IMG/VR virus record: IMGVR_UViG_3300020360_000085
Coordinates: 186,520-250,519 of that record
Direction: 5' to 3' (one strand)
Length of the DNA stretch: 64,000 nucleotides
From: a virus
Taxonomy: Duplodnaviria; Caudoviricetes
Positions 62,830-64,000 of this stretch are shown piece by piece. Numbering within the stretch: position 1 is the stretch's first letter; every line of letters starts with the position of its first letter. The position numbers and the translations under genes are program-made. The notes below the pieces were generated by a model. It was not told where the DNA came from. It saw nothing but the letters and a program-made list of their open reading frames with translations, and did no database searches.

Positions 62830-63342
62830 ATGAAACTAAATGAAATATTTGGTTTAAAAGATCGTTTTGCGAAGTTTAAAGCAGATCGTGAGACTGTACC
62901 TGTACCACCTAAAACAAATTTATATCATGTCACATTGGCACATAACTGGCCTAGCATACAGCGACAAGGTTTAATACCTGGTGGTGTATGTAAATCATAT
63001 AATGCCTGTGATAACAACTATGTGTATTTAACAGACAATGCCGGTATAGCCACAGCCGTAATAGGTAGCAGTGACCTATCTCAACAAGAAATAGACAAGA
63101 GTAATGGTAAAGGTGTAATAATGTTAATAAACAGTACTAAACTTAAACCTGAATTACTCAGCAGTGATCCTGGAGTTCCAGCAAATTGGACAAATCCCAA
63201 ATACACCTACAGATATCAGGGAACAATACCTGCTGATGCTATAGTTATGCATGATGAATTTGAATTAGACTATGGGTATTATTTAAATAAACAATTTAGA
63301 CATTTACGTCCTGGAAAGCCTGGCGAAAAATATCGTCCTTAA
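62830..63342 (+). CDS. Tpt1/KptA- or ADP-ribosyltransferase-fold protein
   Basis: LYHVT..NWPSIQRQGLIP and VYLTD motifs; Y.YQGTIP..AI. Confidence 0.55.
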   Translation: MKLNEIFGLKDRFAKFKADRETVPVPPKTNLYHVTLAHNWPSIQRQGLIPGGVCKSYNACDNNYVYLTDNAGIATAVIGSSDLSQQEIDKSNGKGVIMLINSTKLKPELLSSDPGVPANWTNPKYTYRYQGTIPADAIVMHDEFELDYGYYLNKQFRHLRPGKPGEKYRP

Positions 63343-63593
63343 TTGATCTGCCTGCCTGTAACCTGTGTGTACACATTTAATATAGACTGATTAAATCGTG
63401 GCTTCTCCCACTGACGTTCATGTACATAGTATAACACCATTTTAGTAAGAACTTCCAGACTGGCTATACTGGCACCTATACTGGCACTACCAGTTAATAA
63501 CCAAGACAGAAGAAAAGTATCAGCACTTGCTAGAACTCTCCAAGTACAGGTCTTGCAAAAACTGATTACATGTGCTCGTTTTTTGTAACTCAT
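63339..63593 (-). CDS. DUF2061-family membrane protein
   Basis: KTCTWRVLAS.DT and KMVLYYVHER.W. Confidence 0.85.
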   Translation of the reverse strand: MSYKKRAHVISFCKTCTWRVLASADTFLLSWLLTGSASIGASIASLEVLTKMVLYYVHERQWEKPRFNQSILNVYTQVTGRQIN

Positions 63594-63683
63594 ATGAATA
63601 TTTACAGATGATGTGGCATTAAATTAACAGTTAGTATAAGTTATATGTTGCTTTAATGCCACACCTGTTTTAGATATAGTTGA

Positions 63684-63845
63684 TTATGCTACCCAACGTG
63701 TGCCACGATATATGCCTTGCGACATTTTCGGGGTTTCTGTCTTATGTTTAGCCTCAACTCTGACACCTCTATAAATATAACCAAGCGATTTTTTAGCCGC
63801 TTTGGGTTTATTTTGTTTAGTGAGTTTGATTCCTCTATAAGTCAT
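63684..63845 (-). CDS. YRG-motif peptide, DUF4278/IF17-like (53 aa)
   Basis: Manual translation MTYRGIKLTKQNKPKAAKKSLGYIYRGVRVEAKHKTETPKMSQGIYRGTRWVA; GGAGG RBS; not in ORF track. Confidence 0.8.
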   Translation of the reverse strand: MTYRGIKLTKQNKPKAAKKSLGYIYRGVRVEAKHKTETPKMSQGIYRGTRWVA

Positions 63846-63854
63846 GTCATCCTC

Positions 63855-63998
63855 CTCTAATTTTTGTTAAAAGAAAATGCGTTCCTTCGACTTTCGGTCT
63901 CGTTCGGCTGTTGCCTACTTGCTTACCTTTGAGTTAGATCTCAAAGAGGTTTTCAGGTCTACTTCCGTTCACTGCTACATTTAGAGTGAATGAACGAT
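63855..63998 (-). ncRNA. Glutamine-II (Downstream-peptide)-type riboswitch, expanded variant
   Basis: P1 CGUUC/GAACG, ACGGAAGUAG...CGAAGGAACGC core, P2 UUCACU/AGUGAA, possible pseudoknot CUCUAA/UUAGAG at the RBS, downstream YRG peptide. Confidence 0.75.
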
Positions 63999-64000
63999 TG

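Follow-up and report, generated by a model that had tools for sequence, protein, structure and literature searches.

The window studied here is a 64,000-nt stretch forming the last 64 kb of a 250,519-bp viral record (Duplodnaviria; Caudoviricetes; IMG/VR record IMGVR_UViG_3300020360_000085, positions 186,520 to 250,519). At its very end, on the minus strand, it probably carries a self-contained regulatory cassette of a jumbo T4-related marine phage. In this cassette a type-1 glutamine riboswitch with a large P3 domain, working as an ON switch through an anti-Shine-Dalgarno (anti-SD) hairpin, would control a 53-amino-acid (aa) protein of the DUF4278 family with three YRG repeats, the whole being of SAR86-like origin. 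Read along the minus strand, the elements follow one another as CGUUCA, a 22-nt hairpin, ACGGAAGUAG, 69 nt, CGAAGGAACGC, a 33-nt leader containing GAGGAGG, an AUG and a 53-codon open reading frame (ORF). The parts on which the argument rests are the following:

63876..63998, minus strand: Glutamine-I (glnA-type) aptamer, extended-P3 variant, 123 nt (RF01739, 49 bits; covariance model R1, described below, 99 bits)
63992..63996, minus strand: 5′ strand of P1, CGUUC, with its partner GAACG at 63884-63880 (Rfam structure line; invariant in 36/36 variants)
63969..63990, minus strand: P2 hairpin with a "phage-type" loop that includes CUCUAA at 63986-63981 (stem covaries across the family)
63890..63958, minus strand: P3 domain, made of a basal stem, hairpin 1, an arm with a second AGUA/GAA motif capped by hairpin 2, and invariant junction strands (alignments A1 and A3)
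63879, minus strand: linchpin C, which pairs with a G of ACGG when the ligand is bound and is the first base of the anti-SD hairpin (consensus ...GAACG-C-AU)
63848..63879, minus strand: predicted SD-sequestering hairpin of 13 bp, 63879-63867 with 63860-63848, loop 63866-63861 (minimum free energy (MFE) folds)
63851..63857, minus strand: SD sequence GAGGAGG, 5 nt before the AUG at 63845 (read from the sequence)
63684..63845, minus strand: 53-aa basic mini-protein with three YRG repeats, DUF4278-like, stop codon included (ORF call)

All 4227 Rfam families were scanned with Infernal against the whole window. The sole match above the gathering threshold was RF01739, the Glutamine (glnA-type) family, at 63998-63876(-), with a score of 49 bits for a cut-off of 35, an E-value of 1e-7 for the whole window and 53/53 model positions covered. 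Relative to this model, Infernal places 63 extra nt in the P3 loop. The core junction blocks are all exact (CGUUCA at 63996-63991, ACGGAAGUAG at 63968-63959 and CGAAGGAACGC at 63889-63879), and both linchpin partners are present, the G in ACGG at 63966/63965 and C63879. Scored with R1, which models the extended P3, the aptamer reaches 99 bits and is found as a single copy in the 250-kb record. Across 86 distinct sequences P1 is invariant, while P2 and P3 covary. As read from the sequence, the architecture is that of the three-stem glnA type (type-1), and these data support a genuine glutamine-riboswitch aptamer on the phage. An earlier note on this DNA had described the same core as that of a Downstream-peptide motif and proposed a check with both Infernal models. 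The conserved strings are indeed present, but the name has to be changed: the glnA model RF01739 gives the positive match above, whereas RF01704 (Downstream-peptide, Glutamine-II) has no match in the 250-kb record, in a weak search for which the control genomes gave none either, and is also absent from the Rfam scan of the cassette region at E ≤ 10. We also observed that the 22-nt P2 hairpin UUCACUCUAAAUGUAGCAGUGA (63969-63990(-)) is near-identical in many otherwise divergent phage riboswitches, recurring in single and tandem aptamers and before different genes, and is absent from the SAR86 copies.

The extended P3 was characterized by comparison. When IMG/VR was searched by exact pattern for aptamers whose two core blocks are 45-75 nt apart, 100 viral contigs matched. 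The matches fall into two classes: 42 loci are bridged tandem aptamers, and 59 loci (36 distinct sequences) have a truly long P3. The consensus of the latter (alignment A1) reads GAAAACCUC, a variable hairpin, GG, NNAGC-N-AGUA, a second variable hairpin and GAAC-GAGACCGA. The covariance model R1 derives from a hand-written structure composed of the basal P3 stem, hairpin 1, the C-G-flanked AGUA/GAA and hairpin 2. We realigned 100 viral and cellular loci to it (alignment A3) and computed the pairing statistics on the 86 distinct sequences. Standard pairs occupy 97.9% of the cells, compared to 82.5% in column shuffles and 32-62% when partners are slid by 1-3 columns; 331 cells are changed on both sides, versus about 100 in the control, and compensatory pairs are present in each helix of the domain. 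Within A1, the arm with AGUA/GAA, a motif that is the loop-E (bulged-G) signature, receives support from two subgroups, one of which pairs an inserted 5′ U with an inserted 3′ A and the other of which exchanges an A.C opposition for G.A. On this covariation evidence, what looks like a 69-nt "insertion" in P3 is a folded domain, both conserved and covarying. It bears a partial resemblance to the 3′ half of the aptamer itself and forms a three-way junction with an AGUA/GAA of its own.

Three other interpretations of this region were set aside. The domain scanned alone matches no Rfam family at E ≤ 10, and we rejected on this ground the idea of a nested copy of a known RNA family. A long-range CGG/CCG pairing proposed by RNAalifold was not adopted, as its positions are all invariant and hence show no covariation. 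Finally, the pairing of the P1 5′ strand with the P3-internal GAACGA, which appears in the unconstrained MFE fold, is regarded as a by-product, since GAAAGAG or GGAACAGAG variants would break this pairing and keep the arm.

Between the aptamer and the start codon, the hairpin predicted to sequester the SD has a free energy of -9.5 kcal/mol in the window and is recovered too when the whole leader is folded. For comparison we used 29 distinct short leaders from related viral loci. A single hairpin extending from the post-P1 nucleotide to the start codon, with the SD in its 3′ arm, is found in all of them (29/29), and its closing pair uses the C after P1 in 27/29. The two arms covary (CAUCUC/GGAGAUG, CACCU/AGGGUG and CAUUUUCUUUU/GGAGGAUG). 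The glutamine-free SD-hairpin structure is a prediction whose conservation is directly visible in the leaders. A different platform had been proposed in the earlier note, namely a helix between the P2-loop CUCUAA (63986-63981) and a UUAGAG (63860-63855) overlapping the ribosome-binding site (RBS). The overlap holds, GAGGAGG being at 63857-63851, and the two hexamers are exact reverse complements; such a 6-bp complementarity between loop and RBS is by itself not beyond chance, with a rough estimate of a few per cent for the 13-nt and 20-nt segments concerned. CUCUAA is present in the P2 loop of 13/29 leaders and UUAGAG at the RBS of 2/29, and the two occur together only in the window phage; locus L076 keeps the UUAGAG RBS with an unrelated P2. 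With both halves together in 1/29 leaders, we rejected this pairing as the expression platform on comparative grounds.

In the crystal structures of Ren et al, as relayed in PMC6212724, glutamine binding brings the linchpin C into a pair with the conserved G. The model for the gifB leader of Synechocystis is that the linchpin C and the following bases mask the RBS until glutamine binding frees them, and expression from the homologous cyanobacterial switches is raised by glutamine (PMC6212724). As the layout of the phage leader matches the gifB model, we read it, by analogy, as a translational ON switch. Without glutamine, the tail starting at the linchpin C 63879 would pair with the SD region in a 13-bp, A-U/G-U-rich hairpin stacked on P1, and translation would be blocked. 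With glutamine bound, the linchpin C would be captured by the G of ACGG, the base of the hairpin would be destabilized and the ribosome site would open, as in the gifB scheme. An OFF switch, or an action on RNA stability or transcription instead of translation initiation, appears quite improbable. Aptamer and hairpin overlap by just 1-3 nt and a strong hairpin follows the ORF, both of which speak for such a mechanism, but no terminator lies between aptamer and ORF, the SD-sequestering design is present in all short leaders, and glutamine raises expression in the cyanobacterial homologs cited above.

The ORF announced by the earlier note after the riboswitch, 53 aa long with three YRG motifs, was confirmed at 63845-63684(-). 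The YRG motifs start at residues 3, 25 and 46, and the protein is strongly basic (isoelectric point (pI) 10.7; 14 K/R versus 2 D/E). It matches Pfam DUF4278 (PF14105) over residues 1-49 with 23.8 bits, just below the cut-off of 25.3 (E 5.7e-5), and each of the 36 relatives aligned from phages and SAR86 matches DUF4278 with an E-value of 0.01 or lower (3e-9 for the best). Across these 36, invariance is limited to the nine YRG residues. The nearest ESM Atlas clusters are DUF4278 proteins of 52-57 aa, one of them listed as viral, and a word-based protein search returned three near-identical peptides only. From the alignment, AlphaFold2 predicts beta-hairpins around YRG motifs two and three but nothing like a globular core, with a predicted local distance difference test (pLDDT) score of 75.7 and a predicted template-modeling (pTM) score of 0.24. 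A sequence-profile search of the PDB with the peptide found no solved relative, the only match being a chance one to uS19 (E 1.6). Overall, the sequence data support a translated-looking, triple-YRG, DUF4278-like mini-protein, which is most likely a nitrogen-status effector binding a host protein or RNA.

Cellular relatives of the cassette were sought by a core-pattern scan of one genome per species for 185,579 prokaryotic species. The extended-P3 pattern was found in 48 genomes, 47 from the SAR86 cluster or related uncultured Gammaproteobacteria and one metagenome-assembled genome of Halieaceae, and in no cyanobacterium among these species genomes. In SAR86 the aptamer, which scores 90-104 bits with R1, precedes a 52-55-aa triple-YRG protein whose YRG spacing is as in the phage. 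At two annotated SAR86 loci the cassette adjoins glnK-amtB, in convergent orientation at one and in the same direction at the other. Between the aptamer and the start codon of the SAR86 copies lies a conserved ~60-nt element, and their P2 stems are longer; the phage copy has neither feature. This element, composed of GUUGAGAAGGGUGU, a variable hairpin and AUGUACGAAAUCGAAACGAAAA, occurs in the SAR86 loci L108-L154 and in viral loci such as L004, L021 and L039, and may be a second structured regulatory module. The phage GC content is 33.5%, compared to a median of 35.8% for the SAR86 loci. Because the same riboswitch variant and peptide are present in SAR86 and the GC contents are close, we infer that the cassette is SAR86-derived and that SAR86 is the most likely host of the phage; SAR86-like hosts are the probable source of the cassette and probably also the cells in which it acts.

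The record itself has a GC content of 33.5% and is estimated to be 66% complete. Its major capsid protein shares 69% identity with those of PA5oct-like Pseudomonas jumbo phages and 62-64% with those of Sinorhizobium, Xanthomonas and Erwinia jumbo phages. No psbA was found in the 250 kb, no TonB-receptor match in a search of the phage and no tRNA in the window. Nothing meaningful was found in 50,697 GenBank phage records, whether the 2-kb end or the cassette was used in blastn or the peptide in tblastn; for a motif this short, such a test is weak. At window position 64000, 2 nt beyond the 5′ end of the aptamer match, the record stops. This location at the very end raises the question of whether the cassette is phage DNA at all, or a chimeric contig end or host contamination, and some small "viral" contigs do encode peptides near-identical to those of SAR86. 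We nevertheless regard this explanation as hardly credible. An independent Tara Oceans assembly of 141.9 kb (L107) contains an identical aptamer and a peptide with 98% identity, continues into the same downstream genes and extends 3.1 kb further upstream, so the cassette is not an assembly chimera. Moreover, the leader and P2 follow the phage design and differ from that of SAR86, and in another locus (L030) the cassette lies within a T4-like cluster, flanked by the major head and tail-tube genes.

Upstream of P1, at a distance of 5-25 nt, an exact TATAAATA, presumably the T4 late-promoter consensus, is present in 36/70 distinct viral upstream regions, often just after an intrinsic terminator. 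Its background is 0.8% per 60 nt in the same viral loci, and it occurs in 0/47 SAR86 loci. In related phages, the unit would be transcribed from a T4-type late promoter just upstream of P1, and late expression is likely in the window phage. In L107, AATAAATA, a 7/8 match to the late box, lies 27 nt upstream of P1 and overlaps a perfect TATAAT; a simple sigma-70 and terminator scan around the L107 cassette gave nothing above background. Note also that L107 has, at 2940-2955, a 6-bp hairpin with a GCAA loop (GUAACG GCAA CGUUAC) between an AT-rich promoter-like box and the aptamer, and that the 3′ arm of this hairpin resembles the P1 strand CGUUC.

Transcription was assessed from Logan contigs of metatranscriptomes placed on 63200-64000. 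A 288-nt contig with 100% identity covers 63714-64000 in two runs of one sample (k-mer depths 108 and 31), a run from another study gave a 301-nt variant contig over 63693-63998, and a third run gave fragments. No metatranscriptome contig covers 63200-63690, which serves as an internal silent control. These contigs support transcription of the switch-plus-ORF stretch. They end within one base of the end of the record (window 64000), and both the contig breaks and the record end probably arise from assembly-graph branching at k-mers common to riboswitch copies, not from RNA or biological ends.

That the phage senses host nitrogen status, as the earlier note suggested, is a reasonable inference; what the peptide would act on is a separate question. 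The known target of IF17 is type I glutamine synthetase (GS). DUF4278 forms the N-terminal moiety of IF17, which stabilizes the protein and improves GS inactivation yet is dispensable, and the inhibitory residues sit in the IF7-like C-terminal part (PMC6316151). The phage peptide, 53 aa long with DUF4278 spanning residues 1-49, leaves no room for an IF7-like GS-binding part, an argument from length and not from an IF7 alignment. Five SAR86 genomes (1.2-1.3 Mb) have a single GS, of the GlnII type and adjoining ntrB, and neither GlnE nor the N-terminal domain of type III GS was found in these five; in SAR86 genome G002 (L172), for instance, a 348-aa GlnII-type GS is directly upstream of an ntrB-like kinase. 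No GS gene was found in the phage record. When a complex of the SAR86 peptide with a SAR86 GlnII dimer was predicted, the partner was folded at a pLDDT of 23-24, which is evidence neither way on binding. Given a peptide that lacks the IF7-like part and a SAR86 GS of the GlnII type, GS inhibition becomes one possibility among several.

The model of the earlier note combined the P2-loop/RBS switching helix with an IF17-like peptide by which a cyanophage would shut down host GS. The 6-nt complementarity does exist, IF17 does include DUF4278 with an N-terminal part reported to improve GS inactivation (PMC6316151), and glutamine riboswitches do control gifB in cyanobacteria (PMC6212724). We nonetheless consider this model very unlikely: the CUCUAA/UUAGAG pairing is not conserved, with L076 keeping the RBS half and differing in P2; the riboswitch variant occurs in SAR86 and in none of the cyanobacterial genomes scanned; the 250 kb contain no detected psbA; and the peptide consists of DUF4278 without the GS-binding part. 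The cyanobacterial frame is not supported. A version that keeps our riboswitch and platform and takes the GlnII-type GS of a SAR86 host as the target, high glutamine promoting synthesis of an inhibitor in a product feedback, fares better but is still unlikely. Its regulatory logic is that of Synechocystis (PMC6212724), and the five SAR86 genomes combine a GlnII next to ntrB with no detected GlnE, so that no adenylylation control was found in them; this support is indirect, and the known inactivating factors act on type I GS via residues that the peptide lacks. Alternatively, the peptide could act elsewhere in nitrogen signalling, on GlnK/PII, AmtB or NtrB, or, as a basic repeat protein built of beta-hairpins, bind RNA or the ribosome. 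We hold this to be a possibility of some substance, if a doubtful one. The cassette abuts glnK-amtB at the two SAR86 loci in two orientations, and the charge (pI 10.7, 14 K/R versus 2 D/E) and the predicted beta-hairpins around YRG without a globular core also speak for it; against it, the phage copy has no glnK-amtB neighbors.

The P3 domain admits a bolder proposal, namely that it is a second functional module and not mere scaffolding, and that the YRG mini-protein is an unrecognized SAR86 nitrogen-status effector, expressed late by jumbo and T4-like phages to reset host nitrogen assimilation. As a second input, the domain could respond, for example, to a further metabolite or to the basic YRG protein, which would then bind its own leader. 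We judge the proposal as a whole rather unlikely; if it were true, uncultured phages could be assigned to SAR86 by the riboswitch variant that they share with it, the first sequence-level handle of this kind. Independently of it, the conserved P3 domain is a defined target for structural work.

Returning to the cassette read as a glutamine-responsive ON switch in a SAR86-infecting phage, several points weigh against this reading and temper it. Aptamer and hairpin compete for only 1-3 nt, how binding would open a 13-bp helix is unexplained, and the ON direction is taken by analogy. The promoter of the window copy lies beyond the end of the window, and the 7/8 box plus TATAAT of L107 fits early or late timing. 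The RNA evidence consists of assembled contigs, which cannot show transcript ends. The host assignment draws on riboswitch lineage and GC only, and the phage SufE, compared to 301 genomes of the SAR86 class, is ≤36% identical everywhere (taxonomy not shown) and gives no host signal.

Two further features lie downstream of the stop codon:

63604..63668, minus strand: strong hairpin after the stop codon, without a U tract, possibly a 3′ end or a stabilizer (fold)
63339-63593, minus strand: DUF2061 predicted membrane protein, 84 aa, co-oriented (79 bits; no PHROG family match)

The 111-nt stretch containing this hairpin folds at -25.2 kcal/mol (z -3.7). Its stem is a perfect 13-bp one, GUGUGGCAUUAAA with UUUAAUGCCACAU, and is followed by a TAAATA-like box and the DUF2061 gene. 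The survey of viral loci also revealed other genes behind related aptamers. Tandem pairs of glutamine aptamers precede a different family of ~50-aa peptides (MTKYQ start, LP.YITDNPFYP end), with the same direct anti-SD hairpin, on viral contigs L005, L010, L012, L013, L024-L026, L037, L047, L050, L055, L068-L070, L080-L083, L095 and L102; L069 is a hybrid with GYIYRGVRY in addition. On L031, L049, L073, L085 and L094, the gene behind the tandem aptamers encodes a third kind of small protein (~65-67 aa; called frame starting VTMNRFDHLHK).

Riboswitches are regarded as rare in phages (PMC5473149). Our analysis describes a metabolite-sensing switch within a compact unit of many uncultured marine myophages, including a jumbo phage, often with a T4 late box just upstream. 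It extends the pairing of glutamine riboswitch and DUF4278 from cyanobacteria to SAR86, which is among the most abundant heterotrophs in surface seawater, and to its probable phages. It offers a handle on the function of free-standing DUF4278 proteins, on the control of nitrogen assimilation in a streamlined bacterium with a GlnII-type GS only and no GlnE found, and on which phages infect the uncultured SAR86 clade.

Glutamine riboswitches have been published before, as have their link with DUF4278 in cyanobacteria and the fact that marine phages occasionally carry them (PMC6212724, PMC5473149, PMC9004378), and RF01739 in SAR86 received a passing mention in 2025 (PMC12379486). We found in the searchable literature no description of the P3 domain, of the SAR86 distribution beyond that mention, of a YRG/DUF4278 product of phage copies or of their packaging with a late promoter.

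The published phage copies comprise those of two cyanophage genomes (McCown et al, 2017; PMC5473149) and of OM43 phage Melnitz, Pelagibacter phage Mosig and Prochlorococcus phage AG-345-P14 (PMC9004378). They are likewise glnA-type aptamers on marine myophages, but are tied to ssrA/tmRNA or come without a stated regulated gene, whereas the window copy precedes a YRG gene. The type-2 RF01704 switches of Prochlorococcus and Synechococcus DUF4278 genes (e.g. PMM1846/yfr6) share with it the short free-standing DUF4278 product and the core sequences; they differ in aptamer architecture, RF01704 having no match here, and in host group.

The gifB leader of Synechocystis sp. PCC 6803 (Klaehn et al, 2018; PMC6212724) is alike in its RF01739 aptamer, core and linchpin G-C pair, in a post-linchpin tail that pairs with the RBS, in a product with DUF4278 and in the expected rise with glutamine. 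The phage cassette departs from it by the ~69-nt three-way domain in P3, by a 53-aa product that is DUF4278 only, by being phage-borne and, in relatives, preceded by a T4 late-type promoter, and by cellular relatives that are SAR86 and not cyanobacteria. The SAR86 chromosomal riboswitch with its triple-YRG gene has the same extended-P3 aptamer and a 52-55-aa peptide. Compared to it, the phage has a 33-nt leader with a direct anti-SD hairpin, a phage-type P2 and, in relatives, the TATAAATA box; the phage leader is a stripped-down form of the SAR86 leader.

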